Assembly: GCA_963773065.1 (NCBI GenBank)
Contig: CAVYZN010000023.1
Coordinates: 93,041-125,040, forward strand
Reading direction: 5' to 3'
DNA length: 32,000 nucleotides
Source: an uncultured Gammaproteobacteria bacterium
Lineage (GTDB): Bacteria; Pseudomonadota; Gammaproteobacteria; UBA9214
The notes under the pieces are model-generated. The model was given only the letters and a program-made list of their open reading frames with translations, was not told where the DNA came from and made no database searches. A program made the position numbers and the translations under genes. Below are positions 957-18,360 of the stretch, one piece after another. How positions within the stretch are numbered: position 1 is the stretch's first letter; each line of letters begins with the position of its first letter.

Positions 957-2391
957 CGGCAGCCCGTGTACGCGTGACGTTGAACGGCGGGCCGGCGAGC
1001 GGGGTCAAGGTCGCACTCGGACCCACCAGCGGGTTGTAGGCCGGATAGAACGGGTCATAGGTCCCGGCCGGGATCACATTCCAGAAGTTGGTCTTGTAGG
1101 TGCTGCCGTCATCGCGCACCCCGTTCAGGACCCCCGACAGGCCGAGGATCGGGTCGTTGGCGTTCGCCGCCGCCGAGTAGTACAGGCTCACGCCCGCCGG
1201 GTTCAGCGTCGGAGTGGTCCCTTTCTGCACCACCTGCGCCAGCAACACCTGGAACGGCGGCAGGATGCTCGCGATGCGGGTATCCAGGTCGCCGCAATGC
1301 ATGCCGAGGTCGTTGATGGCCAGCACGCTGTAGCTCGTGTTCGCCACCTGCGACTGCACCGGCACGACCGTGGTCACCGCGTTCACCGAGTTCTGGCTGG
1401 TGGAGTTGATGGAGGTGTTGGGCGCTCCGCCGTCGTTGTCGGTGATGGTGCCGACTCCCTGGGCGTCGGCGATAGTCGCGTTGCTCGGGTTCGACAGGTT
1501 GACGTTGAAGGTCTCGGTCGACTCCGCCGTGGTGTCGTTGATGGTGGTCACCGCGAAGGTCTGGGTCGTGGTGTTTGGCGCGAAGGTCAGCGTCACGTTG
1601 CTGCGGGCGGTGTAGTCGCCGGGAGCCACAGCGGTGCCGTTGGCGGTGCTGGCGGCGACCGTCACCGTCGAGGTGGAGGCCGCCGACAGGCTCACGGTAA
1701 AGTTGGCGGTGCCGCCCTCGGTCACGGTCACGTCGTTGATCGAGAGGCTGGTCTGGGCCGCGTCGTTGTCGTTGATGGTGCCCACGCCCTGGGCATCAGC
1801 GATAGTCGCGTTGCTCGGGTTCGACAGGTTGACGTTGAAGGTCTCGGTCAACTCCGCCGTGGTGTCGTTGATGGTCGTCACCGCGAAGGTCTGGGTCGTG
1901 GTGCTAACCGGGAAGCTCAGCGTCACATTGCTGCGGGCGGTGTAGTCGCCGGGAGCCACAGCGGTGCCGTTGGCGGTGCTGGCGGCGACCGTCACCGTCG
2001 TCGTGGACGCAGCAGAAAGGCTAACAGTGAAGTTGGCGGTGCTGCTCTCGGTCACGGTCACGTTATTGATCGAGAGGCTGGGCTGGGCCGTGTCGTTGTC
2101 GTTAATGGTGCCCACGCCCTGACTGTCGGCGATAGTCGCGTTGCTCGGGTTCGATAGGTTGACGTTGAAGGTCTCGGTCGATTCCGCCGTGGTGTCGTTG
2201 ATGGTCGTCACCGCGAAGGTCTGGGTCGTGGTGCCCGGGTTAAAGGTCAGCGTCACGTTGCTGCGGGCGGCGTAGTCGCCGGGAGCCACAGCGCTGCCGT
2301 TGGCGGTGCTAGCGGCGACAGTCACCGTCTGCGTGGAGGCGGCCGACAGGCTCACGGTAAAGTTGGCGGTGCCGCCCTCGGTCACGGTCAC
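922..2391 (-). CDS. Central fragment of the Calx-beta repeat protein: three near-identical 110-aa Calx-beta units, then a non-repetitive region.
   Basis: ORF track, 489 aa. Three consecutive units of the form VTVTEGGTANFTVSLSAAST.TVTVAASTANG.AVAPGDY.ARSNVTL.F...TTQTFAVTTINDTTAE.TETFNVNLSNPSNATIAD.QGVGTINDND, which is the classic Calx-beta pattern. Confidence 0.8.
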   Translation of the reverse strand: MTVTEGGTANFTVSLSAASTQTVTVAASTANGSAVAPGDYAARSNVTLTFNPGTTTQTFAVTTINDTTAESTETFNVNLSNPSNATIADSQGVGTINDNDTAQPSLSINNVTVTESSTANFTVSLSAASTTTVTVAASTANGTAVAPGDYTARSNVTLSFPVSTTTQTFAVTTINDTTAELTETFNVNLSNPSNATIADAQGVGTINDNDAAQTSLSINDVTVTEGGTANFTVSLSAASTSTVTVAASTANGTAVAPGDYTARSNVTLTFAPNTTTQTFAVTTINDTTAESTETFNVNLSNPSNATIADAQGVGTITDNDGGAPNTSINSTSQNSVNAVTTVVPVQSQVANTSYSVLAINDLGMHCGDLDTRIASILPPFQVLLAQVVQKGTTPTLNPAGVSLYYSAAANANDPILGLSGVLNGVRDDGSTYKTNFWNVIPAGTYDPFYPAYNPLVGPSATLTPLAGPPFNVTRTRAAGAEHGEVLHRQ

Positions 2392-2720
2392 GTTGTTGAT
2401 CGAGAGGCTGGGCTGCGCCGTGTCGTTGTCGTTGATGGTGCCGACACCTGAGCGTCGCTGATCGTGCCCTTGCTGGGGTTACTCAGGTTGACGTTGAAGG
2501 TCTCGGTAGTCTCCGGCGTCGTGTTCTGAATGGTACTGACCGAGATGGTTTGAGTGGTGACGCCATTATTGAATGTAAGGGTGCCGCTACTCGCCGTGTA
2601 GTCCGAACCGGACTGGGCAGTGCCGTTCGCGGTCGCATAGTTGATCGTCATACGCCCGTTAGTGCCGTTGGCGCGGGTCACCGTGAAGGTCGCGGTGCCC
2701 CCCTCGGTGACCGTCTGGTC
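1402..2720. repeat. Tandem coding repeat, period 330 bp (110 codons), four units: three near-identical and one diverged.
   Basis: The string gttgacgttgaaggtctcggtc...gtcaccgcgaaggtctgggtcgtggtg recurs at about 1498, 1828 and 2158, with a diverged copy at about 2487. The units correspond to the Calx-beta domains. Confidence 0.9.
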
Positions 2721-2825
2721 GTTGATGCTCCAGGTCGTAGCCTGGGCCGCGAGCGCGGAGCCCGCCAGGAGCATGAAGGCCGTGCACAACCGCCAGAACC
2801 GGGCGTGGTTTGAAGTATGAGTCAT
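2388..2825 (-). CDS. N-terminal fragment of the Calx-beta repeat protein: signal peptide plus a first, diverged Calx-beta unit.
   Basis: Likely start is ATG at 2825 (MTHTSNHARFWRLCTAFMLLAGSALAAQA|TTW: basic n-region, hydrophobic core, AQA cleavage-type site) with GGAGGA 8 nt upstream. The frame is lost near 2446..2450, where one base is missing relative to the paralogous repeat units. Confidence 0.75.
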   Translation of the reverse strand: MTHTSNHARFWRLCTAFMLLAGSALAAQATTWSINDQTVTEGGTATFTVTRANGTNGRMTINYATANGTAQSGSDYTASSGTLTFNNGVTTQTISVSTIQNTTPETTETFNVNLSNPSKGTISDAQVSAPSTTTTRRSPASRSTT

Positions 2826-3140
2826 CGTCGCTATCCTCCACCATGGTGTTGAGCTCAATTCCCAGCCCTCTTTAAGGAGACACCGGAACCGGAACGCTAA
2901 CAGAGTCGATTAAAAAATAGATAGCAAACGTCTTCTCGCCGCACGGTTGCGGTGGTTGCTGCTGATGTTGCCATCACGTGAACTAAAGATGATGTGGAAA
3001 GTTTTCAAATTATTTTGGGACATTTTACCCAATTATTACTATGAGTCAACAGTGCAAAGTCAAACTAAGCGGCCAGCTATGCACCCTCGTTGACCCGTTC
3101 GAGAACGCGAATACCGCAACCGCTAACGGCCTGTCACCCC

Positions 3141-3374
3141 TCATGAAGTCGCGGTCATTGCGCTGCGAAATAGCCAAGGCGAATTGGGATTCGCCGCTGT
3201 TGAATGTACCTGTATGTAGTGCCGGATATACGGGAGGGCCTTTTCCCATTCTCCTGAGTATGCTTTCTTCGTGTCGTACAGGGTATCCCCCTCAAGGAAC
3301 ATACAGGCCGATACGGCTTCAGAGAAGGCGGCCGGCACTGCCCATGCGAACCCGTCAAAGAATCTCTCGCTCAT
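3141..3374 (-). CDS. Hypothetical small protein (77 aa) in the low-GC insert.
   Basis: ORF track. Its start overlaps the stop of the upstream ORF by 4 nt (ATGA-type overlap at 3371..3374), suggesting coupling. No recognisable motif. Confidence 0.35.
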   Translation of the reverse strand: MSERFFDGFAWAVPAAFSEAVSACMFLEGDTLYDTKKAYSGEWEKALPYIRHYIQVHSTAANPNSPWLFRSAMTATS

Positions 3375-3952
3375 TTGCCTCCTGGCAACCCAACTGCCCC
3401 GCCAGCGATTGCTACCACGAGTGGATGCACAAGAAATCTCCGTAGCAGGCCCATTGCTTCCTGCTTTTGCTCCTGTGTCGCATTGGCATTGTCAATGAGT
3501 TGGACCAGCTCTTCAACACTCTGGGTGACTCGCTGCCTGTTGTTATCCCCTACGATGACATTGGTCGAGCCGGAGACGTTGACTGTGTTGTTTTGCACGA
3601 ACTCCACCTTTATGTCTGAAGTCGCTTCACCCTCAACCACATCAATTCCAAATGCAGAGATTTTTCCTATGCCATCGTTAACCGCACCATAAGACTTCAG
3701 GGACTTCCATTCGATAAGACCATGCTGACCTAGCTGGTCGCTGATTGCGAGAATGTCGTCCTCAGTGATGGGGACCTCAAAGTCGCTGGGCTGAGGTAGG
3801 TACATCCCACCGCGACGGTTCTCGTAGTACCGCTGCAGGACCAAGCCCCGGAGTTGTGTGTCCTTCACTGTGCGTAGCTCCCCGCCACCAATATTACTAG
3901 CAATAGTTACTAGCGAATTTCTATAATTTATTGTTTTTATAACTACTTTCAA
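3371..3952 (-). CDS. Hypothetical protein, possibly with a winged-helix-like N-terminal half. The maximal ORF starts at TTG 3952; a more likely start is GTG at 3868.
   Basis: ORF track, 193 aa, in an AT-richer segment. The pattern LRGLVLQRYYENRRGG...DILAISDQLGQHGLIEW......GKISAFGIDVVEG resembles small wHTH proteins. GTG at 3868 is preceded by GGGGAG about 9 nt upstream. TTG at 3952 lies only 3 nt from the tRNA end. Confidence 0.55.
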   Translation of the reverse strand: MKVVIKTINYRNSLVTIASNIGGGELRTVKDTQLRGLVLQRYYENRRGGMYLPQPSDFEVPITEDDILAISDQLGQHGLIEWKSLKSYGAVNDGIGKISAFGIDVVEGEATSDIKVEFVQNNTVNVSGSTNVIVGDNNRQRVTQSVEELVQLIDNANATQEQKQEAMGLLRRFLVHPLVVAIAGGAVGLPGGK

Positions 3953-3954
3953 TA

Positions 3955-4039
3955 TGGTGCCGATGGCCGGACTCGAACCGGCATGGCTTGCGCCACTGCC
4001 CCCTCAAGACAGCGTGTCTACCAATTTCACCACATCGGC
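3955..4039 (-). tRNA. tRNA-Leu (anticodon GAG), type II with a long variable arm and an encoded CCA.
   Basis: The reverse complement reads GCCGATG TG GTGA AATTGGTAGA CAC G CTGTC TTGAGGG GGCAG TGGCGCAAGCCAT GCCGG TTCGAGT CCGGC CATCGGC ACCA. It has a 7-bp acceptor stem, an anticodon loop TTGAGGG (GAG = plus-strand ctc at 4003..4005) and a T-loop TTCGAGT. Its position just downstream of secG matches the secG-tRNA-Leu arrangement in E. coli and Pseudomonas. Confidence 0.95.
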
Positions 4040-4073
4040 CTGATTCGAAACGCTACGCCGCAAGCGGCGCGGC

Positions 4074-4663
4074 TTATTCAGGTAAATCATCCACCTTCTT
4101 GTCCGGCGTCGCGGGTGCCTTCGGCGCAATGCCGGCAGCGGCTGGTTTCTTTGCAGCCGGTTTCTTGCGGTTTCGGGCGCCGGTTTCTCGGTCGCCGCTT
4201 TCTTTTCCGCCGGTTTGACAACAGCCGGTTGCACGGCTGCCGGTGTCTCGGCGGCCGGCTTCTCTGCCACCGGGTTCTCGGCGGCCGGCGCCGGAGTGAT
4301 TTCCGGAAGGTCCGGCGCCGCGCTCTTCAACTTGTCGAGGGTGGCGGCCGTTTCTTCCTGCTGCGCGGCTTTCTGCTGGGCATTCTGCTGCTCGATCTGC
4401 TCGACCACGCTCTCGGGCGCTGCGCGGCCCACGTGGCGCACCAGCGGCGAGGCGATCAACAGGCAGTTGATGAAGAACACAGCCGCCATGATGGCGGTCG
4501 CCCGCGTGAAGAACGACCCCGAGCCGCGCGACCCGAAGACCGTGCCCGAGGCGCCGCTGCCAAACCCGGCGCCCATGTCGGCGCCCTTGCCCTGTTGCAA
4601 GAGCACCAGGGTGATGATGCTGATGGACACCAGGATCTGCACAACCAGTAGTAAGGTAAACAT
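4074..4663 (-). CDS. secG: Preprotein translocase subunit SecG with a long Pro/Ala/Lys/Glu-rich C-terminal tail. One apparent frameshift near 4160..4175; the uninterrupted ORF as read is 4004..4663.
   Basis: The N-terminus MFTLLLVVQILVSISIITLVLLQQGKGADMGAGFGSGASGTVFGSRGSGSFFTRATAIMAAVFFINCLLIA is a typical SecG. The as-read ORF runs 36 nt into the tRNA gene and ends in Arg-rich junk. The alternative frame gives ..KKPAAKKPAAAGIAPKAPATPDKKVDDLPE* and stops at 4074..4076, before the tRNA. Confidence 0.85.
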
Positions 4664-4702
4664 AGGCGACCGTCAATTCAGCGTTAATACATTTATATAA
4701 GA

Positions 4703-5464
4703 TCAGCGGCGGACATTGCCGGCCCGGCCGATCGCCAGAAAATCCTGCGCATCCAGGGAGGCGCCGCCGATCAGACCGCCGTCGATATCCGCCATGGCGA
4801 GAAGCTCCGCGGCATTGCTGCCCTTGACGCTGCCGCCGTAGAGAATCCGGACCTTCGCCGCGACGGCCTTGTCCAGGCCGGCCAGCTTGCCGCGGATGAA
4901 GGCGTGTACATCCTGCGCCTGCTGCGGTGAGGCGGTCCTGCCGGTGCCGATTGCCCAGACCGGTTCGTAGGCGATCACGGCGGCGGCCAGCGCGCCGACG
5001 CCCTCGAGGGCGATGACGGCGTCCAGTTGACGGCCGACGACCTGCTCGGTGATGCCCTGCTCCCGTTCCTCCAGCAGCTCGCCCACGCACAGGATCGGCA
5101 CCAGTCCGGCCTTGCGCGCGGCGGCGAACTTGCGCGCCGTGAAGTCGTCGCTTTCGCCGTAGATGCTGCGCCGCTCGGAATGCCCCACGATGGCGTATTT
5201 GCAGCCGACATCGGTCAGCATGCCGGGCGCCACCTCGCCGGTATGAGCCCCGGATTCCCGGTCGTTGACGTCCTGGGCGCCGAGCGCGACCGAGGTCCCC
5301 TTTAGCATGGCGGCCACCTGCGGGAGGTAGACGTAGGGCGGGCAGACCGCCAGTTCCGCCGTGGTGACCATAGCCAGGCCGGCCTTGATCCCCTCGACCA
5401 GCTTTTTGATGCTGGCGAGCGATCCGTTCATCTTCCAGTTACCGGCGACCAGTGGCTGACGCAT
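4703..5464 (-). CDS. tpiA: Triose-phosphate isomerase.
   Basis: MRQPLVAGNWKMNG..., AIVGHSERR, AYEPVWAIGTG, ILYGGSV motifs. ATG at 5464 is preceded by GGAGG. The longer ORF start at 5521 is unlikely. Confidence 0.95.
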   Translation of the reverse strand: MRQPLVAGNWKMNGSLASIKKLVEGIKAGLAMVTTAELAVCPPYVYLPQVAAMLKGTSVALGAQDVNDRESGAHTGEVAPGMLTDVGCKYAIVGHSERRSIYGESDDFTARKFAAARKAGLVPILCVGELLEEREQGITEQVVGRQLDAVIALEGVGALAAAVIAYEPVWAIGTGRTASPQQAQDVHAFIRGKLAGLDKAVAAKVRILYGGSVKGSNAAELLAMADIDGGLIGGASLDAQDFLAIGRAGNVRR

Positions 5465-5760
5465 TTCGACCTCCCGTGAAAGCAGGCCGGGTAGCTTAGC
5501 GATCCGGGACCGGAAAATCAATTTGTCCGGTGAAATGCTTGTTTGCGCAGGAACCTTCGCTCATGAATGAGCAGACCCCTCAATTGCCTCAGGAACCGTG
5601 CGGCCCGGCGGACCTTTCCCCCCCGGCAAGGAAACGCGACCCAGGGTGAGACGCTCAGGCAACACCGTTTCGTGAAAAATTCACGTAGCCGGGAAAAAGC
5701 CCGGTTATTGACTATGATTACGGTACAAAACCCAATGGACCCCGGTAAAGGAGGATCGCT

Positions 5761-6129
5761 ATGGCCAGGAAAGCGCTTTGCATCGGCATCAACAACTACC
5801 CCGGTACTCACATGGATCTGCAGGGCTGCGTCAACGACGCCCAGGATTGGGCCGCGGTTTTGCAGGCACGCGGCTACACGGTCACCACTCTGCTCGACAA
5901 ACACGCCACCAAGGCCGCGATGGTACAGGCGATGTCGGACCTGATCGGCGCGGCGGGCAACGGCGCTTTCACCTACTACGCACTGAAAACGCTCAAGGCG
6001 CTGAAGCCGGACGCCAGTTATGCGGACTGGAACAAGGCCATCGGCGCTTATCTGCCGTCCGCCAGTTACCCGCAGAGTCCGCAACTCGTGGGCAACAAGA
6101 CGGCGCGCGGGCAGAAGGTTTTTGGCTGA
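5761..6129 (+). CDS. Caspase-family (peptidase C14-like) mini-protein lacking the catalytic His/Cys core.
   Basis: 122 aa with a strong SD (AAGGAGGA, 6-nt spacer). The N-terminus KALCIGINNYPG...LQGCVNDAQDWAAVLQARGY matches the first strand/helix of metacaspase-type domains. The C-terminus NGAFTYYALKTLK...YADWNKAIGAYL...YPQSPQL matches the end of the fold. The SGHG and D.C.SG segments expected in between are absent. Confidence 0.6.
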   Translation: MARKALCIGINNYPGTHMDLQGCVNDAQDWAAVLQARGYTVTTLLDKHATKAAMVQAMSDLIGAAGNGAFTYYALKTLKALKPDASYADWNKAIGAYLPSASYPQSPQLVGNKTARGQKVFG

Positions 6130-6196
6130 CCAGTATCCAAGTAAGAAGTGAGAAGTAAAAAAGTAAGGTCCGGAGCCACCGCCCCGGCACCCGACC

Positions 6197-6424
6197 ATGA
6201 ACATCTTAGCCATCACACTTTGGCAGATGAATGAGAACCTCCCCGCTTTGAAACTGATGCGGGCTGCTGCCGAGGGCCGCACGCGCGTGCTGGGGTCGAA
6301 TCATCCCGATGCGGTCAACTCGCGGCAGATGTTTGCGCAGATGTCGGCAGCATTAAGTGGTAAACGAATAGGCTTTGTAGACAGGAAAAGAATCATCAGA
6401 GGGAACTTGCAAAGCACCAGGTAA
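6197..6424 (+). pseudogene. Fragment of a TPR (TPR_10/12-like) repeat protein.
   Basis: 75-aa ORF. ..LAITLWQMNENLPALKLMRAAAEGRTRVLGSNHPDAVNSRQMFAQM resembles the ..A..L.e.al..r.rvLG.eHPdT..s..nLA repeat. It is isolated by stop codons upstream and has no convincing SD. Confidence 0.4.
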
Positions 6425-6501
6425 AACCTTCAGGCGAGTGCCACGTTTGAAAGGGACAGGACGCAAATAGGGAATAATCAGGACCAAAGGAGAACGACAT
6501 C

Positions 6502-9500
6502 ATGACCAGGACCTATAAGATACGCGGCACCGAACAACACGCGAGGACCGTTCCTCCCACCAGTCAGGACATCGCCATCACCAATCCGCGCCGGCTGGTC
6601 GCCCGGCTCCGCCCGCGAGGCCGGGGTGGGCGAGATCGAGGCGGCGGGCGACGAGGTGGTGCGGGTGGAACTGGAAAACGGCTTCGTGCTGTGGACCCGG
6701 GCCGACGACCTGATCCGGGAGCGGGGCCGGAAGGCGACGAGCCGCGACGGGGGCGAGGGTTGGGAGATCGAAAGCCGGCCAAAATTGCGGGGCATGCAGT
6801 CCGGCCAGCGGGGCTGGCTGGGGCTCGGTATCAAGGTGCTGGAGTTCTTCGGCGTGGACCTGACGGGCAAGACGGCCGGGGTACTGGGCGACAAGCTGGA
6901 GGAGAAACTGTTGAAGGGCAATTTCCCGGGTCTCTACCGCTGCGCCCTGGGGGATGCTTTTACCCTCACGGTTGTGCCCGACGGTGAGGAACTGCCAACT
7001 GGCAAGGAGCCGTTGCTGGTATTTATACACGGTACCGCTTCCAGCACCCAGGGCAGCTTCGGCAAGCTTTGGGAAGGAGGCGGCAGCGCCGGCGCCGCGG
7101 CGCGCAAGACACTCAAGGATCGCTACGGCGACCGGGTGTATGCCTGGGAGCACCGCTCCCTCACCGTCAGTCCCATCCAGAATGCCCTGGAGTTGGTGCG
7201 ACGCCTTCCCGCCAACGCCGTGGTCCATTTGGTGACTCATTCCCGGGGCGGGCTGGTGGGGGAACTGCTTTGTCTCGCCGAGCGGGACAAGTCCAAGGAC
7301 CCGTTCCAGTCGGATCTCCTGCAAAACCTGTTCGCCGCCGATCGCACCATCGCCGAGCAGATCGGCCTGAGCCCGCTGGATGAGGGCGCCGCCAAGACGC
7401 GCGACGATGCTTACGGCGAGGACCGGGAGCGGCTGAAAAAGCTGCTGGAATTGCTGGACGAAAAGCAGATTAAAATCCGACGCTTCGTGCGCGTGGCCTG
7501 TCCGGCCCGGGGCACCACCCTGGCCTCGGGCCGCCTGGACCGCTGGCTGTCGGTCATCAACCACCTCACCGGCAACAGCCTGGTGGGCGATGCCGCCGAC
7601 TTCCTGCTGGCGGTGGTGAAGGAGCGCACCGACCCGCGCACCCTGCCGGGGCTGGAGGCCATGATGCCCGGCTCGGCCCTCACCCGGATGCTACAGCACC
7701 CCGCCCTCACCACCGGCGCCGATCTGACGGTGATCGCCGGCGACGTCGAGGGCGACAACCTGTGGAGCCAGATCAAGCTGCTGGCCACCGACTGGTTCTA
7801 CGGCGCCGACCACGATCTGGTAGTGAACACCGGTTCCATGTATGGCGGCATCCGCCGACCGGAAAAGGGCGCCCGCTTCCTGCGGGACCAGGGTCCCAGC
7901 GTCAACCACTTCAGCTATTTCGAGAACGACAAGAGCGTGCGCTGGCTGATGGCGGGACTCACCCGGGCCGACGGAACCGACGGCGGCTTCCAGCCCATCG
8001 AAGCAGCGAAACACGAAGAACCCCGCTGGCGCGAGGCGGTGCGCCGCAGCCGTGCCGCGACCGCGCCGCGGCCCCTGGCCGTGGTGCTGCCGGGCACTCT
8101 GGGCAGCGCCCTGAAGGTGCAGGGCGAAAATGTGTGGCTCGACTACTGGTCCCTGTTGTGGGGCGGGCTCAAGCGGCTAAGCATGGATGCGACGGGGGTC
8201 GAGCCCACCGACCTGCTGGACGATTTTTACGGCCCCCTGCTGGAGTTCCTGGCACGCAGCCACCGCGTGGAGATCTTCCCCTACGATTGGCGGCTTTCGG
8301 TGGTCGATGCGGCGAAAAAACTGGCGGACCGCTTGGAAGTCTGGCTGCCGGCAGCCGAGCGCACTGACCAGTCCGTACACCTGGTGGCCCATTCCATGGG
8401 CGGGCTGGTGGTGCGCGCCATGATCGCGGACACGCAACGTGGAGCAGCGCTGTGGCGGCGCATCGTTGCCCTGCCCAACAGCCGATTCCTGATGCTGGGC
8501 ACGCCGAACCTGGGTTCCTACGAAGCGGTGCGCTGGCTGACCGGCGGCAACCCAACCCAGGCCAAGATCAGCCTGCTGGATATCACCCAGAGCACCAACG
8601 AGATCATCGATTTGGTGCGCAACTATCCGGGCCTGGTGGAACTGCTGCCCTTCGACCCCGACAGCCCCGACTTCAGCCAGCAGGGCCTCTGGAAGAAACT
8701 CAGGGACGCCTTGAACGCCTCATGGCAACCGGCCGAGGAAGCGGTGCTGCGCCAGGCGCTCGCTACCTGGACTCTCTTGAAACAGTCCGCCCCGGATCCC
8801 GAGCACATGATTTACGTGGCCGGCTGTCAGGATGCCACGGTGGCGGATTACCACCTGGCCGACTACGAACAACCCTCTCTCGCTGGACGTAAACGCCTCG
8901 AGTTCATCGGCGACCGGCAGGGCGACGGAACGGTGACCTGGAAGTCCGGCCGCCTGCCCGGCGTACCCGTCTGGTATGTGGAAGACACGGCCCATGACGA
9001 GCTGTGCAAGCAGAAACGCGCCCTGCCCGGCTACCTGGATCTGCTCATGACCGGCAAGACCACGCGCCTGCCCGGCACCCCGCCGGCCGGGGCGAGAGCG
9101 GCGGCGGGCGAGCCGGATCGCTTCCCCATGCCGGCCCTGCCGCACACCGACGACATCCCGGATGAGCGCAGCGTGCGCAGCTTCAGCTTCGGTCCCGGGC
9201 GGCCCTTAGAGACCGATGACGACCGGCCGGTGGTGCCGGTCATCCAGGTCGGCATCTGTCACGGCGACCTGGCCTACGCCCATCATCCGGTGCTGGTGGG
9301 GCATTACCTGGGTGACACCGTCATCAGCGCCGAGTCCGCCCTGGACCACCGGCTTGGCGGGGCGCTGACACGGCGCCTGCAGCTCGGGCTCTACCCGGGG
9401 CAGACGGGAACCCATGCCCTGTTCTTCAATGAAAAGACGGACGGCAAACCCGGGGGCGCGGTCGTGATCGGGCTGGGCCAGGTGGGCGAACTCTCTCCCG

Positions 9501-12022
9501 GTCTGCTCGAGGCCGGCGTGCGCAACGCGCTGATGGACTACGCCCTGCAGGTGGCTCAATGGCCGGACGAACGCTTCGGTCCGGCCAAGGGCGTGCGATC
9601 GGCCGCCGTATCCTGTCTGCTGGTGGGCTCCGGCCCGGGCGGCATGGCGGTGCGTGATTCCGTCGATGCCATCCTCCGGGGCGCGGTGGCGGCCAATGAC
9701 CGGCTGGAGCAGGCTGATCTGAATGACCGGGTGCTCATCGACCGCGTCGAGTTTCTGGAGCTGTTCGAGGACGTGGCCCTCGCCGCGGCCGATGCAATGG
9801 ATTCGATCTTGAAGGACGGGAAACTGGCCAATGCCATCGCCTGGCCGGCGAAAGTCATCGAGGAAGGACAGGGCCGGCTCCGCCGGGTACGCTGCGACGA
9901 TACACCGGGCTGGTGGCACCGGCTGGAGATCATCGAGGAGAAAGGCCGGGGCGGCCTGCGCTTCATCGCCTCCACCGATCGCGCCCGGGCCGAGGTCACC
10001 CAGGCCACCGGCCAGCTTCGATTGGCGGACAGCTTTATCCACCAGGCCTCCCAGTCTCCCGCCAGCAATGCCGAAGTGGCCAAGACCCTGTTCGAGATGC
10101 TCCTGCCCAACCGGCTGAAGGAATTGGCCCCCAGACAGACGGACCTGGTGCTGCTGGTGGACGCAGCCTCGGCGCGCTACCCCTGGGAATTGCTGGAAGA
10201 CCGCTGGAGCCAGACCGGCCGGCCGGCCGCTGTTTCCGCCGGCCTGGTGCGCCAGCTCAAGACGCCCCGGTTCCGTCCCCATCCGGCCCATGCCACCGAG
10301 GCCACCGCCTTCGTCGTGGGCAATCCGGATCTGGGCGGCTGGGATTCCTTCCCCGACCTGCCCGGCGCAAGGCAGGAGGCGCAAAACGTCGCCAGCCGGC
10401 TTATGGCCGGAGGTTATCGGGTGAGGGACTGCATTGATGAAAAGGCCGACGTCATCCTGGAAGTTCTGCACAAGGACGCCTGGCGCATCCTGCACCTGGC
10501 GGGCCACGGCGAGCACGAGATGGTGCTGGAGGAGGAAGATGAAGCCCGAGAGGTGTGCGCGGACGATGAGCGGCCCGTTCCGAAACGCAAGCAGTGCCTC
10601 TCGGGCATGGTCATCGGCAGCAAGACTTTCCTCACCCCGGGCGATGTGGAGCAGATGCGCTGGGTGCCGGAGCTGGTGTTCATCAACTGCTGCCACCTGG
10701 GCAAGACCGGCGCCTCCCGACACGGCAAATACAGCCTGCTGGCGGCGAACCTGGGAGTGCAGTTCATCAACATGGGAGTCAAGGCAGTGGTGGCCGCCGG
10801 CTGGGCGGTGGACGACGGGGCGGCGAGCGCCTTCGCGGAGAGTTTCTACGCCCACCTGCTGGACGGCGAGCTTTTCGGCAAGGCGGTGCGTGCCGCCCGG
10901 GAGGAGATCTGGACCCGCTTCCCCAACGTCAACACCTGGGGCGCCTACCAGTGCTACGGGGATCCCGGCTACCGGCTTCGCGGCGACGGCGCTGCCCCAC
11001 CGCCTCCCAGCGGCAAGCGCTACCACTCCCCGGCCGAATTGATCGCCGATCTGGAAAACCACACCCAAGTGATCCGCGTGAAGATCAAGAACAAGGAGAA
11101 GGACGGGGACGAGGATGCCCTCGCCAAGATGCGCGCCGGCATCGTCGGCCTGTTCGGTGCCATACCGGAAGAGCGGCAGGCGAAATGGCTCGCCCGCGCC
11201 GACGTGGCGGCGGCAGTGGGCTTCGCCTGGGGCGAGACCGGCGCCTGGGCCGAGGCCGTGGAATGGCTGGAGAAGGCACTGCATGCCAAGGAGGGCGATT
11301 GCCCGGTGCGGGCGGTGGAACAGTGCGCCAACTTCAGGGTACGGCTGTCCGCGCAGAAGTGGCAGCAGATGCGTGATGCGGTTGATCGCAAACAGGCCGA
11401 GGCAGGTCGCTCTGCGCTGATCCGGGAAATCGAACTCGCCATCCGGGAACTGGACTACCTCAACCAGCGGGCGCCGACCCAGGAACGATTGGACCTGCTG
11501 GGCGGCGCCTGCAAGCGGCTGGCCTGGGTTCACACCGAAGAGGCGCCGCGCCTCGAAGCTCTGGTCAACATGGCCAACTACTATCGCCAAGCCTTCGATC
11601 ATGACGACAAAGCCAGATCCCTATCCCTTCACCAACTGGGCCATCGCCAAGGTGTTCGCCAATCGGTTCGATCCCACCCAGGATGGCGAGTGGCGGATCA
11701 CTCTGGAAGACGAATGCCGGCGCATGATCGACGTGGCCCGGAGCCGCAACGCCGAGAAACCCAATTTCTGGGACGGGGCGGCCGAGGCCGACTGCGAACT
11801 GGTGATGTTGCTATGCTGGCAAATCGCGACACCACGACGAAGGCAGCCAACGAAGCCGTGACCCGCATTGCCGAACTTTACCGAGCCGCGGCACGGCGCG
11901 GCGCCAGTCCCAGGGAATACGCCTCGGTGCTGGAGCACCTGGACTTCGTCATCGAGGTGGGCGGCTTCACGGCCGGCTCTCCATTGAACGAAGCTCTGCG
12001 CGCCATCCGCGATGCGCTCTGA
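6502..12022 (+). CDS. Giant multidomain protein (about 1840 aa): alpha/beta hydrolase 1 + LCAT/PGAP1-like lipase + middle (possibly macro-like) region + CHAT caspase-fold protease + helical/TPR-like tail. The continuous ORF as read is 6626..12022.
   Basis: ORF track, 1798 aa. Hydrolase 1: LLVFIHGTASS, VTHSRGG (Ser 7241..7243), DHDLVVNTGSM. Lipase 2: PYDWRLS (8279..), VAHSMGG (Ser 8393..8395), GDGTV (Asp 8924..8926), DTAHDEL. CHAT: PDLPGARQEAQ, ILHLAGHGEH (His 10505..10507), LVFINCCHLG (Cys 10688..10693), AVVAAGWAVDD..A..F...FY, TWGAYQCYGDPGY. The likely true start is ATG 6502 (AAGGAG 9 nt upstream, MTRTYKIRG...), joined by a frameshift within about 6575..6625. A compensating frameshift pair at about 11605..11615 and 11805..11820 puts about 70 codons out of frame; the real reading is ..DDKPDPYPFTNWAIAKVFANRFDPTQDGEWRITLEDECRRMIDVARSRNAEKPNFWDGAAEADCELVMLL.. 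from ORF 11601..11861. Confidence 0.85.
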
Positions 12023-12047
12023 GCCGCCAGGAACCAAGGAGACCGCC

Positions 12048-12605
12048 ATGGCCAACCGTTCGAAAACCCGGCTGGAAAACCTCAGTCTCGAAGACCTCGA
12101 CCCGCAGGATCTCATCGCCGCGAACTTCCGTGTCTATGAACTCACCCGTTCCGAACTCGCCAGCCGGCTGGGCATAGACAACACCTTCCCGAGCGACCGG
12201 GAACTGCGCGCCGCCGTGTACCTGGCCCGCAAGGTGCTGCAGGTGATTCGCGATACCTTCGGCCCCTATACCCCAAACAGCGTGTTCCGCAGCCAAGCCC
12301 TGGAGCGCGCGCTGAAGAAAAAGCCCGGCGGGTGGATCAGCACCAGCCAGCACACCCAGGGCTGCGCCTGTGACGTGGAGATCGTCGGCAAGACCACCCT
12401 GGAACTGGCTCAATGGGCGGCGGACAACCTGCCCGACTACGACCAGATCATCTGCGAGTGCTTCGACCCGAGCGAAGGCCCCAACTCCGGTTGGGTGCAT
12501 ATCTCCCTCAAGCCCCCCGAATTGGGGGTAAACCGCAGGACCCTCTTGAGCTACATCCGTGATCCCGAAAATGGAACTCATCGCCGCGAACTTCCGTGTC
12601 TATGA
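12048..12605 (+). CDS. Peptidase M15 family zinc metallopeptidase (D-Ala-D-Ala carboxypeptidase / endolysin-like), copy 1.
   Basis: ATG 12048 has AAGGAGA 6 nt upstream and lies 26 nt after the stop of the giant gene. Motifs: F.V.EL..S..A.RLGIDN.P, VFRS, H-x6-D (SQHTQGCACD, 12351..12374), GWVHIS. No signal peptide. The C-terminus is replaced by out-of-frame readthrough into copy 2. Confidence 0.8.
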   Translation: MANRSKTRLENLSLEDLDPQDLIAANFRVYELTRSELASRLGIDNTFPSDRELRAAVYLARKVLQVIRDTFGPYTPNSVFRSQALERALKKKPGGWISTSQHTQGCACDVEIVGKTTLELAQWAADNLPDYDQIICECFDPSEGPNSGWVHISLKPPELGVNRRTLLSYIRDPENGTHRRELPCL

Positions 12606-13042
12606 ACTCACCCGCTCCGAACTCGCCAGCCGGCTGGGCATAGACAATTCCTTTCCCAGCGAGCGGGAGCTGCGCGCCGCCGTGTACCTGGCGCGCAAGG
12701 TGCTGCAGGTGATTCGCAAGGAATTCGGTTCCTTCTCACCCAACAGCGTGTTCCGCAGCCAGGCTCTGGAACGCGCGCTGAAGAAAAAGCCCGCCGGCTG
12801 GATCAGCACCAGCCAACACACCCAGGGCTGTGCCTGCGACCTGGAACTCGTCGGCAAGACCACCCTGGAACTGGCCCAGTGGGCGGCGGACAACCTGCCC
12901 GACTACGACCAGATCATCTGCGAGTGCTTCGACCCGAGAGAAGGTCCCAACTCCGGTTGGGTGCACATCTCCTTCAAGCCCCCCGAATTGGGGGTAAACC
13001 GCAGGACCCTCCTGAGCTACATCCGTGATCCCGGAAGCGAAC
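12111..13042. repeat. Direct tandem duplication, 2 x 466 bp (12111..12576 and 12577..13042), covering most of the M15 peptidase gene.
   Basis: ctcatcgccgcgaacttccgtgtctatgaactcacccg starts at both 12111 and 12577. The copies align end to end with scattered substitutions; most positions are identical by eye. Confidence 0.9.
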
Positions 13043-13083
13043 AGATGGTTTATGTCGAGGGGTTGCGGGAAAGCGTGGCGTGA
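12571..13083 (+). CDS. Peptidase M15 family zinc metallopeptidase, copy 2 (tandem paralogue).
   Basis: Same motifs as copy 1 (His at 12817..12819). Start is ATG 12571, or GTG 12559 as in the ORF track. It has the full-length C-terminus ..SYIRDPGSEQMVYVEGLRESVA. Confidence 0.8.
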   Translation: MELIAANFRVYELTRSELASRLGIDNSFPSERELRAAVYLARKVLQVIRKEFGSFSPNSVFRSQALERALKKKPAGWISTSQHTQGCACDLELVGKTTLELAQWAADNLPDYDQIICECFDPREGPNSGWVHISFKPPELGVNRRTLLSYIRDPGSEQMVYVEGLRESVA

Positions 13084-13170
13084 CAATTGGCATGATGTCG
13101 AAGTGACTGTGCGCGACACCGGTGAGATCAGCGCGAGTGGAAAATACTTCCGGCATCGCACCGGTTACTG

Positions 13171-13349
13171 AGAGCCTGTGAAAATATCGCCAGCCTGCGT
13201 CGGACGCCGCTTTGCGGCTGCGGCGGCGTTGCGCCACGCGAAAACTTCGGTCATTTGGCTCGCCAAACTCCCTTGTTTTCGCGCAGCGCGCCTTGCCTCG
13301 CACGCAAATCGACGCCCTCGCGACGACCGTCGATATTTTCACAGGCTCT
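13171..13349. repeat. 179-bp palindromic element with perfect 19-bp terminal inverted repeats (MITE-like or a large hairpin).
   Basis: agagcctgtgaaaatatcg at 13171..13189 is the exact reverse complement of cgatattttcacaggctct at 13331..13349. There is an inner inverted pair, cgcgaaaac / gttttcgcg. The element lies in a non-coding, lower-GC gap. Confidence 0.8.
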
Positions 13350-13386
13350 GAATCCATACATCATCCACTGCAAGGAGGAGATGGCC

Positions 13387-13518
13387 ATGAATAAATGCGT
13401 TGTGTTGCTACGCAACGCTTGGTGGATTACGCAAGAATACGCTAACCCCCTACCCGCCCTGATTTGTATTCCTCCCTCAATGACAGACAGAACGCTTACC
13501 TTGACGGATATCCGCTGA
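13387..13518 (+). CDS. Possible 43-aa small ORF (MNKCVVLLRNAWWITQEYANPLPALICIPPSMTDRTLTLTDIR).
   Basis: A strong SD (AAGGAGG) lies about 8 nt upstream of ATG 13387. No homology recognised. It may be fortuitous. Confidence 0.2.
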   Translation: MNKCVVLLRNAWWITQEYANPLPALICIPPSMTDRTLTLTDIR

Positions 13519-13754
13519 TCCCGTTCAGCGGCATGCGCCATGGCGGCGTGTGCCACAGTTGAAGTAACCGGTGACAGAACGTCTGAAAAAAATTCAAGAC
13601 CCTGCGCTCCTGCCTCCTGCATGCGGTGAAATTTATACCCGGCCTTCAACGGAAGCGATTGGGCGAAATCCTGACTGCTCCATCGAATACCGGGGTTTCT
13701 TTCGCCAGCCCGGTTATCTGCGATATGCTCCTTTCTCTTGAGAACACGGGCCAC

Positions 13755-16464
13755 ATGACCACCATCTACCTCTCTTCGTCCTACGAAGACCTGAAGGACT
13801 ACCGCCGGGTCGTGTTCGAGGCCCTGCGACGGTCCGGGTATAACGTCATCGCGATGGAGGAGTACGTCGCCCGTGACGACCGCCCCGTGTACGCCTGCCT
13901 TCAGGACGTCGATCACGCCGACATCTATGTGGGGCTGTTTGCCTTCCGCTATGGCTACATCCCGCCCGCCGCACACGGCAATCCCAACGGCCTGTCCATC
14001 ACCGAACTGGAGTTCCGGCGCGCCGATCGCTGCGCCTGCCAAGAAATGCCTGACGTTTCTGCTCGATGAAAAGACCCCCTGGTCGAGCCTATACAACGAC
14101 GCCTATACACGTGAGAACGAACGCGGTGAGCGAATCAAGAAGTTGAGGGATTACCTGCGGCAGGAAAAGATGGCAAGCTTCTTCAGCACACCCCACGAAC
14201 TGGCCAGCCTGGTGCAAGCCGCCGTCAGCCAACATCTCCAGTCCGGCCGGGAAGAATCCCCGGCGTCCGAAACCCGTTCCGAACCGATCACCTGGCACGT
14301 CGCCAAAGACGACTCGCCCTATCCGGGGCTCATGCACTTCACGCGACAGTTCGCCCGGGTGTTCTTCGGCCGCGAGGGGGAGGCGCGGGAACTGCTCGAC
14401 CGGATGACCCTGCCCGATGGCCGCTTCCTCATCGTGAGCGGCGACTCCGGCACCGGCAAGTCCTCGCTGGTGGATGCGGGCGTGTTACCCCGGCTGGAGG
14501 AATCCGGACTCCCCGGATACCCGACACTCACTACGGTACGCCTGGTCCCGGGCGAAGGAGAGAACCCCTTCGACGCCCTGCTCCGGGTCCTTAGCCCTTA
14601 CGCACAACGGGCGGGTTTGAACTCGTATCTGCTTGGCACCGAGGAGCTGGTCGCCCACCCCGAGAATTTGCCGGCAACGCTTGCGACGATCGTCGCGCGT
14701 GGCATGGACACAAAGGCCTTGGTGCTGTTTGTCGACCAGATGGAAGAGCTGTTCACGGTCAAGGAAGAGGAAAAAGCGCTGGCGGCCGCCTTTCTCTCGG
14801 GGCTTTACCAGGCCATCCAGACAAGCGCCTTGTGGGTCATCGCCACCATCCGCACCGACCTGCTGCACCACTGCTACAACCACCCGGACCTGCTCAAGGT
14901 CCTGCGCGGTCCGGGGCATTATCCGCTCGGTCCGATGGCGCTCCACCGGTTGCATGAGATCATCGTGCGGCCCGCTCGCTGCGCCGGCCTGGCAGTTCCC
15001 GGTCCTCTGGCGGGACGTCTGATCAAGGACGTCGGCACGGAAGCGGGCAATCTGCCGTTGCTGGCCTTCGTGCTGCGGCGGTTGTTCGACAGACGCCAGG
15101 ATAATGTGCTCAGTGAAGCAGTCTACGATGACCTCGGCGTCCTCAATGGCGCCATCGCCGATCACGCTGCTTCGGTGCAACGCGAACTCGCCGCCACCCT
15201 TGGACAAGAAGTCCTGGAACGGCGTCTTGCCGAAATCTTCGAGGCTCTGGTCCACGCGGATGTGGAGGGCCTGCCCACCCGGCGCAGCGTCCCTTCGCAG
15301 GAGTTTTCCGACCACATGCATACCGTCATCGATGCCCTGGTGAAGGGACAGCTTCTGACCGTGCAGGGTGGGCGCGATAAGGGCACCGTCACCGTGGCTC
15401 ACGAACGCCTGTTCAATGCCTGGCCGGCGCTTGCCCATTGGGTCGCCGAACTCCAGGACGAGCTGCGCCTGCTGCGCCAGGGTGAACTCGATGCCGCGGA
15501 GTGGCAGCGTCATAACGCAGACCTCGGCTATCTTTGGCACACCGACCGCCTGATGCGCTTGCAGACGGTGGTAAGCGGCCTGGCAGCCAACCGGGCAAGC
15601 CGGCAGCTACGCGACTTCGCCTGGCCGCAACAACGTCTGGTGAACCGCCTGAACGAACCGGAACTTACCCATGAGGTACGCCAGAGCATCGGCCGCTACC
15701 TGGCCGAGCAGGGCGATCCACGGCCGGGGACCGGTGTGACCGCCGACGGTATCCCGGACATCGACTGGGTAGACATACCCGACGGTCGCGTGGTGTTGGA
15801 GAAAAATGTCGGCGCGGGCATGGTCGAACCTTTCCGCATGGCGCGTTATCCCATCACCAATGCCCAGTTCGAAGCCTTCGTGTCCGCCGCAGATGGTTAT
15901 CGTAACCGGGAATGGTGGACAGGATCGCCGGAGGCCGCCAGCGATGGCCTGGAAACGCCGCGCTGGCCCGAACCCAACCATCCGCGCGTGTCTGTATCCT
16001 GGTACAAGGCGGCGGCCTTTTGCCGCTGGCTGTCCCGGCGGCTCGGCTTCGAGGTCTGGCTGCCCACCGAATTCGAGTGGCAGCAGGCGGCCACCGGCGG
16101 TGACCCGACCAACGTCTATCCCTGGGGCCCCGAATGGGATGCGCGCTACTGCAACAGTACGAAGAGCAGGCTGAACCGAACCACGGCGGTGGGCATGTAT
16201 CCCGCGGGCGCCAGCCACCAGGGCGTGCTGGATCTGGCCGGCAACGTGTGGGAATGGTGCAAGAATAAATACGACAATCCCGATGACCCAAAGGCGTTGC
16301 GCGTCGATGATTCCGGAGATTCGCGCGTGTTGCGCGGCGGGTCCTGGGCCGGCGGTCCGGTCGACCTGCGTTGCGCCGACCGCTTCAGGTTCTTTCCCGA
16401 CGACCGCTTCGTCGACATCGGGTTTCGTGTGGTGTGCCGCCCCCGCTCTTCCACGGGACGCTGA
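13755..16464 (+). CDS. DUF4062-like (TIR-like Rossmann) N-terminal domain + STAND-type P-loop ATPase (nSTAND-like) + C-terminal FGE-sulfatase-fold domain. One frameshift near 14020..14030.
   Basis: ORFs 13626..14069 and 13873..16464 join as ..GLSITELEFRRA / IAAPAKKCLTFLLDEKTPW... The N-terminus MTTIYLSSSYEDLKDYRRVVFEAL..GYNVIAME.......CLQDVDHADIYVGLFAFRYGYIP fits DUF4062. Walker A is GDSGTGKSSLVDAGVLPRL (14440..), Walker B is LVLFVDQMEELF (14719..14748). FGE fold: FRMARYPITNAQFEAF, LPTEFEWQQAA, LAGNVWEWC, RVLRGGSW, DIGFRVV. Confidence 0.85.
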
Positions 16465-16492
16465 CGGGAATGGCACTTACATCGGGTTACCT

Positions 16493-16652
16493 CAACCTGC
16501 TATTTTGACGGAGCCGCGGAATGCGCACCCGGCGCGCAAGAGTACAATCATCGCGGGGATACCCATGAACACCTACGAACCACACCCAATCGACACCTCC
16601 GGCATCCGGCTACCCGAGGATCTCCTGGAACTCACCGAAGAACTTGCCCGCA
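16493..16652. repeat. Direct repeat copy A (about 160 bp): RyR-gene leader plus the first ~29 codons.
   Basis: Aligns by eye with 18000..18160 (one 1-nt indel, scattered substitutions): caacctgYtattttga..gagccgcggaatgcRcacccggc..ggggatacccatgaacacctacgaacc.cacccRatcgacacctccggc.tccggctacc. Confidence 0.85.
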
Positions 16653-16681
16653 ACCGTATACTCCCTCCGGGCGCCGCGTGA
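16565..16681 (+). pseudogene. Truncated RyR-domain gene copy. The 38-aa ORF has a stop that overlaps the start of the TIR gene.
   Basis: MNTYEPHPIDTSGIRLPEDLLELTEELARN matches the first 30 residues of the 18073..18360 product, then diverges and stops. TGA 16679..16681 overlaps ATG 16681..16683. Confidence 0.5.
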
Positions 16682-17937: not shown

Positions 17938-17999
17938 CCGGGCCAGGCTCAGTGAGAGTGGTGGGCGATGCTCACCCTACGTGCTACCCCCTGCTCCCG

Positions 18000-18160
18000 C
18001 AACCTGTTATTTTGAGCGAGCCGCGGAATGCACACCCGGCGGCGCAAGGGCACAACCATGGCGGGGATACCCATGAACACCTACGAACCTCACCCGATCG
18101 ACACCTCCGGCGTCCGGCTACCGGAGGGCCTCATGGAACTCACCGAAGAACTCGCGCGCA
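18000..18160. repeat. Direct repeat copy B (about 161 bp): leader and 5' end of the intact RyR-domain gene.
   Basis: See copy A (16493..16652). Confidence 0.85.
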
Positions 18161-18360
18161 GCACGCACGATCACTGGGCGAGACAGCGCATCGGGGAGGG
18201 ATGGAGCTGGGGTCCCGCGCGCGATGACGCCGCCAAACGGCACCCCGACCTCGTGCCCTATGCCGAGCTTTCGGAAGCGGAGAAGCAGTACGACCGCACG
18301 ACCGCCATGGAAACGCTGAAGGCGATCATCGCCCTGGGATACCGGATCGAGCGCGATTAG
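18073..18360 (+). CDS. Small RyR (ryanodine-receptor repeat) domain protein, about 95 aa.
   Basis: LPEGLMELTEELARSTHDHWARQRIGEGWSWGPARDDAAKRHPDLVPYAELSEAEKQYDRTTAMETLKAIIALGYRI matches the bacterial RyR-domain pattern (..lAe..Hd.Wa..r...GW.yG...d...k.hP.lvpy.eLse.eK..dr......l......Gy.i). ATG 18073 is favoured by conservation with the truncated copy. ORF-track starts at 18028 or 18058 are possible. Confidence 0.8.
   Translation: MNTYEPHPIDTSGVRLPEGLMELTEELARSTHDHWARQRIGEGWSWGPARDDAAKRHPDLVPYAELSEAEKQYDRTTAMETLKAIIALGYRIERD

Follow-up and report, generated by a model that had tools for sequence, protein, structure and literature searches.

What a single bacterial polypeptide might do with two lipase-type alpha/beta hydrolases, a caspase-fold CHAT protease and a helical tail is the question raised by a giant gene of an uncultured gammaproteobacterium (GTDB lineage UBA9214). 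The gene locates at 6502–12022 on the forward strand of the 32,000-nt stretch of DNA analysed here (GenBank assembly GCA_963773065.1, contig CAVYZN010000023.1, positions 93,041–125,040), which as a whole is referred to as the window. It is confirmed as a real gene, the observation standing far beyond chance level because its Pfam domains exceed the curated cut-offs and because more than 3,000 homologues were found at E ≤ 1e-10 in the protein database. With about even chances, its product would be a cytoplasmic multi-enzyme effector of a bacterial anti-phage or abortive-infection system, switched on by a Thoeris-like TIR signal and attacking membrane and proteins. The architecture is interpreted as two lipase-type alpha/beta hydrolases joined to a core of macro-like domain, CHAT and TPR-S that would provide regulation and proteolysis.

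Reading frame and domain architecture of the giant protein

A stop-free frame of 1,839 codons spans 6506–12022 (+), with a GC content at third codon positions of 0.82. Mechanical listing of open reading frames (ORFs) lets it start with GTG at 6626 and yields 1,798 aa, in which form the gene is annotated and identical to database protein P0001. The gene start is ATG 6502, ahead of which a ribosome-binding site (AAGGAGA) is located at 6488–6494. Reconstruction of the frame by tblastn with the closest intact homologue (P0002; 1,837 aa, 83 % identity) placed residues 1–33 of the latter at 6502–6600 in one frame and residues 34–1837 at 6602–12019 in another; this first frameshift cuts the ATG and the first 33 codons off from the remaining gene. 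Two further frameshifts offset one another, so that the frame stays open with 65 codons out of frame between them; this third-frame stretch of 65 aa (PDPYPFTNWAIA...ELVMLL) extends from ~11612 to 11811. Deletion of nt 6601, nt 11612 and CTATG (11811–11815) results in 1,837 aa with zero internal stops, a C-terminus that again agrees with the family consensus and a TPR-S match (PF20308, cut-off 27.6) that rises from 39.3 bits (1e-9, as recorded) to 54.7 bits (profile positions 2–100 of 102). From the frame changes against P0002 and the stop-free corrected product it follows that the frameshifts suspected in an earlier inspection of the bare DNA (the sequence-only reading) exist and are three in number. 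That reading had further claimed one frame of about 1,840 aa joining several modules, which likewise holds once the indels are removed, and the motifs it listed (THSRGG, PYDWR, AHSMGG, GDGTV, AHDE, HLAGHG and INCCH) all lie where it had placed them. The gene and its parts are as follows.

6502–12022 (+): giant gene, 1,837 aa with the three indels taken out
6502–6997 (+): N-terminal region, aa 1–165; small conserved beta-rich domain (AlphaFold2 strands at aa 52–90), then helices
6599–6603 (+): frameshift 1; a single surplus base, taken to be nt 6601 (tblastn frame change between 6600 and 6602)
6998–8002 (+): hydrolase 1, DUF7379 alpha/beta hydrolase, aa ~166–500 (Pfam)
8060–9067 (+): hydrolase 2, LCAT/LPLA2/PGAP1-like lipase fold, aa ~520–855 (Pfam, Foldseek)
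9068–9235 (+): disordered Pro/Arg-rich linker, aa 856–911 (predicted local distance difference test, pLDDT, below 50)
9236–9952 (+): macro / LAP-N-like domain, aa 912–1150 (Foldseek, profile search)
10073–10963 (+): CHAT caspase-fold protease (Pfam, Foldseek)
11015–12019 (+): helical TPR-S tail, aa ~1505–1837 (Pfam, AlphaFold2)
11610–11815 (+): frameshifts 2 and 3; one extra base near 11612 (in GACGACAAAG) and five extra bases, CTATG, at 11811–11815

Judged by profile matches and active-site residues, the giant protein belongs to the CHAT, LCAT-like, DUF7379 and TPR-S families. A profile of the whole family run against the PDB sequences retrieved weak thioesterase and lipase matches only and structure prediction was therefore needed; AlphaFold2 models of the N-terminal half (pLDDT 77.9) and the C-terminal part (pLDDT 78.8) were searched with Foldseek. 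Conservation was assessed over 120 aligned full-length homologues.

Hydrolase 1 matches DUF7379 (PF24096) with 113.6 bits (1.5e-32; cut-off 33). Its candidate triad comprises Ser247 (7241–7243) in the nucleophile elbow HSRGG, Asp438 (7814–7816) and His469 (7907–7909), each of which is 100 % conserved. The most conserved segment of the family, aa 321–400 (7463–7702, +; ACPARGTTLASGRLDRW...KERTDPRTLPGLEAMMPGS; mean column identity 0.82–0.90), nonetheless has a very low AlphaFold2 pLDDT of about 40 and could be a lid or interaction segment of this hydrolase. For hydrolase 2, Pfam matches were obtained to LCAT (PF02450; 38.5 bits, 1.1e-9, cut-off 21, covering only profile positions 87–180 of 392), PGAP1 (PF07819; 25.1 bits, cut-off 24.3) and also DUF676. 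Its triad, identified by sequence, consists of Ser631 (8393–8395, AHSMGG; 98 % conserved), Asp808 (8924–8926, GDGTV; 100 %) and His831 (8993–8995; 100 %). The best Foldseek matches of the N-terminal-half model are lysosomal phospholipase A2 (4x92) and LCAT (6mvd), with target template-modelling (TM) scores of about 0.6 over ~415 columns, followed by bacterial lipases and Legionella PlaB. Both lines of search thus support an LCAT/LPLA2-like phospholipase fold for hydrolase 2, and hydrolysis of lipids is predicted for it. Two serine hydrolases, the second of them LCAT/PGAP1-like, had also been proposed in the sequence-only reading, and Pfam, residue conservation and Foldseek agree with this; its comparison with patatin/lipase-type effectors applies to function alone and fails as to family, the hydrolases being LCAT/LPLA2-like and DUF7379, not patatin.

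The N-terminal region (aa 1–165) yielded nothing above noise in the Pfam scan. The linker behind hydrolase 2 contains a short motif (consensus PPTDDIPDE...FGFG; aa 879–897, nt 9137–9193, +) with invariant D883, P886 and G897, which is a candidate site for cleavage or docking; in many homologues the motif is followed by an Arg/Lys-rich stretch. A shared EAD-like adaptor was considered and rejected: neither the N-terminal 165 aa nor the linker recurs in neighbour proteins, the sole match being a tandem giant paralogue in Azotobacter chroococcum DSM 2286 (L021). In this strain, two giant paralogues are arranged in tandem at 1952–7432 and 9560–15208 (+), ~2 kb apart.

The region between linker and CHAT, described earlier as a middle region of about 200 aa, is indeed present, and what had been left unassigned can now be given a fold. 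Its Foldseek matches include macroH2A (1zr3_C, target TM 0.71), TTHA0132 (2dx6_A, 0.74), the macro domains of PARP9/14 and the LAP N-domain; target TM scores of 0.63–0.74 over about 190 columns place it within the macro fold. Profile searches matched LAP (3jru_B, E 3.8e-4) and, weakly, TTHA0132 (E 0.36), with the Gly-rich LLxGTGxGG loops aligned. The Pfam Peptidase_M17_N match is sub-threshold (E 0.045), and no match to the Pfam Macro family was obtained in the Pfam scan of the giant protein. Conserved residues of the domain include HG, GHY-GD, AE-LD, YPG, GLG and GTG-GG.

The CHAT domain (PF12770; 99.9 bits, 2.3e-28, cut-off 24) is covered over profile positions 2–289 of 289, and its dyad of His1335 (HLAGHG, 10505–10507) and Cys1396/1397 (INCCH, 10688–10693) is 100 % conserved. 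Foldseek matched it best to the Craspase TPR-CHAT (7zoq_A/7y85_D), and furthermore to DdvA (8rot_A), separase (5fc2_B) and SAVED-CHAT (8tl0). A CHAT domain with intact His and Cys, as first seen in the bare sequence, is thus corroborated by the full-length Pfam match, the dyad and the fold. The tail is all-helical in the AlphaFold2 model (pLDDT above 90) and, more specifically than the TPR-like region recognized before, represents Pfam TPR-S. Overall, profile searches and the structural parse of the corrected protein uphold the lipase and CHAT assignments, with conserved catalytic residues.

Family, recurrent partner genes and proposed mechanism

Of the more than 3,000 matches, the best 120 share the same architecture essentially over full length (55–83 % identity). 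Named or binned homologues derive mainly from Beta- and Gammaproteobacteria, hosts including Thiobacillus, Hydrogenophilales, Accumulibacter, Zoogloea, Thauera, Denitromonas, Methyloversatilis and Nitrogeniibacter as well as Niveibacterium, Azotobacter, Chromatiaceae, Competibacter and Nitrosomonas; at source they are annotated just as "CHAT domain-containing" or "DUF7379 domain-containing". The macro-like domain occurs in 1,458 cluster representatives (50 % identity), most of which are giants of about 1,750–1,900 aa. A short class of about 905–1,090 aa carries the macro-like domain and CHAT without the hydrolases, and TPR-S was detected in most of those scanned. The existence of this hydrolase-free class suggests that the macro-like/CHAT/TPR-S trio is the unit onto which the two hydrolases were fused. 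One of its members (P0207) adjoins genes for TIR-FGS (FGS, FGE-sulfatase fold), SIR2 and nSTAND1.

Neighbouring genes were compared across 57 related loci (55 from a genome scan plus two looked-up loci), and the window, by clustering the flanking ORFs and searching them with iterated hidden Markov models (HMMs); class representatives were spot-checked with Pfam. In 30 of the 57 loci a metacaspase-like C14 gene (about 263 aa) is located directly upstream of the giant gene, and in 27 an M15_3 gene (about 189 aa) directly downstream. TIR genes lie within 10 kb in 19 loci. Methyloversatilis and its relatives contribute eight loci with a TIR gene directly upstream and co-directional, in the position held elsewhere by the caspase, and all eight are devoid of caspase and M15 genes. 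Intact operons are exemplified by Nitrogeniibacter mangrovi (CP048836.1, L002), with caspase, giant gene and M15, and by Methyloversatilis universalis (L038), with TIR, giant gene and a TPR-S-like gene. The protein is therefore not as singular as it had seemed: it represents a large, widely conserved family with recurrent metacaspase and M15 peptidase partners.

TPR-S itself is found beyond the giant proteins. At locus L045, a TPR-S-patatin protein (15566–18232, +) begins 14 nt past the giant gene, which shows TPR-S to be a swappable module on different lytic effectors. At L019 and L049, an unassigned N-terminal region is fused to TPR-S and followed by TIR genes. Judging from Pfam MAP3K_TRAF_bd matches, TPR-S would also be present in animal ASK-type MAP3 kinases. 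Thauera-type loci encode a small protein of about 225–250 aa in the caspase place upstream (L027, 9191–9859, +; also L033, L034, L042 and L058), which is related to TPR-S neighbours by phmmer and gives a weak SLOG family match (YAcAr, E 0.019). An immune or effector role, as proposed initially, fits these surroundings, with TIR, nSTAND1 and FGS in the island of the window and TIR plus TPR-S effectors beside the orthologues.

Several precedents are available for the individual parts of such a system. In type VIII Thoeris, perception of cyclic ADP-ribose is presumed to fall to a TPR domain in the effector, a domain for which Burroughs and Aravind had earlier predicted a part in TIR signalling (2025 preprint, 10.64898/2025.12.03.692087). 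The Macro domain of type II Thoeris perceives histidine-ADP-ribose (His-ADPR), and SAVED-CHAT specifically processes PCaspase. In VMAP conflict systems, caspase domains are always accompanied by an alpha/beta hydrolase (Kaur 2020, PMC7159879), and a function in sensing invaders has been suggested for FGS domains (PMC8195603; PMC10907252).

From the domains, active sites, partner genes and neighbourhoods described above we infer the following course of events, each step of which is conditional. The sensors of the island (TIR-FGS and DUF4062-nSTAND1-FGS) would detect the invader, upon which the TIR domains would produce a nucleotide signal derived from nicotinamide adenine dinucleotide (NAD). 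This signal would be bound by the TPR-S tail, possibly also by the macro-like domain, and binding would switch on the CHAT protease. The latter would cut itself or partners and may free or activate the phospholipase half via the conserved disordered linker; it may also process the small metacaspase that most orthologous loci encode upstream, as SAVED-CHAT does PCaspase. Cell death or arrest would then result from phospholipid hydrolysis, proteolysis and perhaps cleavage of peptidoglycan by the M15 partner.

The island in the window and the state of this copy

In the window, the giant gene is part of a 14-kb island between tpiA and glmM inside a housekeeping block, flanked by dapB, carA, carB, rlmE, ftsH, folP and glmM on one side and by tpiA, secG and tRNA-Leu on the other. 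The further genes of the island are listed below.

5761–6129 (+): metacaspase-like remnant, 122 aa, recognized by tblastn; keeps ortholog residues 1–68 and 209–262, with the deletion junction at about 5964
6197–6424 (+): 75-aa ORF with a Pfam TPR_10 match (30.6 bits, above cut-off), between the caspase remnant and the giant gene
12048–13083 (+): M15_3 (LAS-type zinc peptidase) gene, partial tandem duplication with the copies in different frames
13626–16464 (+): DUF4062-nSTAND1-FGS STAND NTPase gene (Pfam)
16678–17937 (+): TIR-FGS protein, 419 aa (Pfam TIR_2 2.4e-21, FGE-sulfatase 7.5e-46)
18415–19635 (−): TIR-FGS protein, 406 aa (Pfam TIR_2 1.8e-23, FGE-sulfatase 2.4e-64)

An ORF at 5518–6282 (−), antisense to the caspase remnant and without family match, was rejected as a gene and is probably spurious. 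The TPR_10 ORF resembles a leftover piece of some TPR protein; the orthologous loci lack a gene at its position. Copy 1 of the M15 gene covers 12048–12575 (residues 1–176) and copy 2 covers 12574–13080 (residues 21–189); the two are 91.5 % identical over 460 nt without gaps and join out of frame at about 12574. In the family's M15_3 protein of about 189 aa, the LAS-type zinc ligands (H-x6-D...H) are kept, as judged by eye from the sequence. Short "TPR-S-like" ORFs within M15 genes were discarded as alternative-frame artefacts of the iterated HMM. The nSTAND1 gene appears to be broken by a frameshift near 14030–14045, a complete DUF4062 (2e-22) residing in the frame 13626–14069 and nSTAND1 (7e-89) plus FGE-sulfatase (1e-43) in the frame 13873–16464. 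The two TIR-FGS genes are convergent, and the conserved TIR Glu is present.

It is possible, with the balance leaning somewhat to the other side, that the locus in the window is a genuine, recently inactivated relic whose frameshifts are real mutations; otherwise they would be artefacts of assembly or sequencing. The damage is concentrated in the island: the giant gene has three indels and the nSTAND1 gene one, to which the core deletion in the caspase, the partial M15 duplication and the stray TPR_10 fragment are added. The housekeeping genes of the window (tpiA, glmM, folP, ftsH, carA, carB and dapB), by contrast, cover their Pfam profiles over practically the full length and give no hint of frameshifts. 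The record is moreover accurate at least at the island edge, where an independent Logan contig (L068) from run ERR11523661, which contains the window population, is 100 % identical over 2,016 bp including the TIR-FGS gene at 18415–19635. Against a relic, however, the corrected protein differs at just one of 389 near-invariant family positions (L1011M; family median 3), although several such differences would be expected alongside three neutral indels, as a rough estimate. Two of the indels, furthermore, compensate each other and keep the frame open, and for the M15 gene the alternative to a real, diverged duplication is a fusion of two strain alleles during assembly.

An independent contig over the giant gene was searched for and none was found, the search with the corrected C-terminus topping out at 67 % identity; P0001 is absent from the contig index, and no exact match was obtained for the caspase remnant, for one TIR-FGS protein or for M15 copy 1. 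The window copy itself is of lower value, being frameshifted and accompanied by damaged partner genes.

Outside the island, three overlapping ORFs on the reverse strand at 168–2909, two of which contain Calx-beta repeats, look like one large repeat-protein gene with frameshifts; if so, indels would occur beyond the island too. The secG ORF (3955–4663, −) is oddly long (219 aa, with the SecG domain confined to residues 4–71) and overlaps with its 3' end tRNA-Leu(GAG) at 3955–4039. The segment 3001–4000 has a GC content of 0.51, markedly below that of the remaining window.

Competing functions, known systems and biological meaning

Several findings weigh against an effector triggered by TIR signals. 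TIR genes occur within 10 kb in only a third of the loci, and the operon form met most often (caspase, giant gene, M15) is one without them. In the type VIII Thoeris effector, the TPR domain is no more than a presumptive counterpart of Pfam TPR-S. By sequence, the macro-like domain has its nearest relative in the LAP N-domain and not in macro domains that bind ADP-ribose; for this reason, and because the TTHA0132 match is weak, it was named macro / LAP-N-like. As the Asp of its HGDL motif varies across the family, nucleotide binding by the domain is no more than putative. PADLOC holds no model for the giant protein. In the window, finally, an in-frame deletion has removed ortholog residues 69–208 of the metacaspase and with them the catalytic His and Cys (in ortholog L004, Pfam Peptidase_C14 2.4e-25, SGHG with His ~78 and DSCHSG with Cys ~133 are within this span), and the giant gene carries its three frameshifts; the system may, therefore, not work in the genome of the window.

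Because most operons of the family are without a TIR gene, the main rival is a self-contained sensor-effector acting without a second messenger, which is considered doubtful. Its direct cue, whether a phage protein, an ADP-ribosylated target or something else, would be recognized by TPR-S and/or the macro-like domain, and this would switch on CHAT and the lipases, in analogy to the TPR or repeat sensors of Avs/STAND proteins, and the nearby TIR genes would belong to separate systems sharing the defence island. Defence genes cluster in islands whether or not they are functionally linked. The prevalence of the TIR-free operon and the position of the TIR genes in the window, 4.4–6.4 kb downstream past the M15 and nSTAND1 genes and one of them on the opposite strand, agree with such a protein. 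Against it stand the eight loci in which a co-directional TIR gene takes the caspase position, TPR-S fused to other effectors right beside TIR genes, and the short protein form that also adjoins a TIR-FGS gene. Less likely than this self-contained protein, and quite improbable, is a non-immune role in regulated proteolysis or lipid remodelling that would serve signalling or developmental lysis (e.g., a DdvA-like regulatory CHAT or programmed death in floc-formers): the CHAT fold does match two regulatory proteases, separase and the anti-sigma factor DdvA, many hosts form aggregates in wastewater (Zoogloea, Thauera, Accumulibacter, Competibacter) and the gene is chromosomal among housekeeping genes, but its neighbours are typical conflict modules (TIR, nSTAND1, FGS, patatin, SIR2, metacaspase) whose presence varies by locus, and no sigma factor or membrane anchor accompanies it.

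Among described systems, type VIII Thoeris ThsI (CMP-hydrolase plus TPR domain) and the TIR-linked TPR-S proteins (Burroughs and Aravind 2020) resemble the TIR-signal-triggered effector proposed here in carrying a C-terminal TPR-type module on an enzymatic effector with TIR genes near. In contrast to them, the giant effector combines a macro-like domain and CHAT with two lipase-type hydrolases in ~1,840 aa, and TIR genes are absent from most operons of its family. Type IV Thoeris (TIR plus caspase-like ThsE) likewise employs a caspase-fold protease, and type II (TIR plus Macro-domain effector) a macro-fold sensor, as responder to the TIR signal; however, ThsE belongs to the C14-type caspases and brings a C-terminal sensor domain of its own, the type II effector combines Macro with a membrane pore, and both are devoid of CHAT, TPR-S and lipase domains.

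A ligand-sensing domain fused to CHAT is also known from SAVED-CHAT/PCaspase of type III-B CRISPR-Cas (8tl0), which the giant family recalls further by the small caspase-like gene alongside. The giant system, in contrast, is without SAVED, CRISPR-Cas genes and cyclic-oligoadenylate synthase, has TPR-S and the macro-like domain as candidate sensors and adds lipase domains; Pfam revealed no SAVED domain, and the PADLOC SAVED_CHAT match (E 0.0018) concerns the CHAT part only, so that membership was rejected. The Craspase TPR-CHAT protein (Csx29, type III-E), whose CHAT is the best Foldseek match, shares TPR repeats and CHAT, but its TPR precedes CHAT and docks onto gRAMP/Cas7-11, whereas TPR-S of the giant protein follows CHAT; a Craspase was rejected, with no gRAMP/Cas7-11 gene or CRISPR array in the window or the annotated orthologous loci.

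The VMAP (vWA-MoxR) ternary systems (Kaur et al. 2020) offer a parallel for the other half of the architecture, as their caspase-superfamily domain always occurs with an alpha/beta hydrolase, suggesting joint action. There, the pair is encoded by adjacent genes or as VMAP fusions that work with MoxR and vWA proteins, in contrast to the one polypeptide of the giant family; the window and the annotated neighbourhoods showed neither MoxR nor vWA genes. Hydrolase 2 shares fold and conserved Ser-Asp-His triad with LCAT/LPLA2, which differ in being secreted or lysosomal eukaryotic enzymes. CapV of the cyclic-oligonucleotide-based antiphage signalling system (CBASS) is comparable in its predicted membrane-attacking role but is a patatin of unrelated fold; assignment to this system was rejected, as the giant protein gave no patatin match and the window contains no CD-NTase.

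Scans with PADLOC-DB 2.0 (2023) and NCBIfam gave no meaningful model for the giant protein, and the literature search retrieved no paper describing the lipase-macro-CHAT-TPR-S architecture, in line with the initial impression that it cannot be placed in a described system. Its building principles (TIR plus TPR sensor, caspase plus alpha/beta hydrolase, FGS sensors) have already been described or predicted; their combination in the giant protein appears to be new.

Should the TIR-signalling model hold, TIR nucleotide signalling, caspase-like proteolysis and membrane lysis would be linked in one protein, and a large effector would be added beyond the PADLOC models of 2023. An extended and unlikely form of it envisages a three-pronged executioner, in which TPR-S and the macro / LAP-N-like domain would serve as two ligand sensors on one CHAT triggered by TIR nucleotides, and a CHAT cascade would process the metacaspase and cut the linker to release the hydrolases while M15 attacks the wall; if true, it would constitute a bacterial counterpart of the initiator-to-executioner caspase cascade coupled to membrane destruction, and an undescribed Thoeris type. 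If the TIR-signalling model holds, the family would also present a concrete case for testing TPR-S and the macro-like fold as sensors of NAD-derived signals, and would let the cooperation of caspases and alpha/beta hydrolases, a repeated computational observation, be examined. Beta- and Gammaproteobacteria from wastewater and other environments (Accumulibacter, Thauera, Zoogloea, Azotobacter) commonly carry it, and in such bacteria resistance to phages matters practically.

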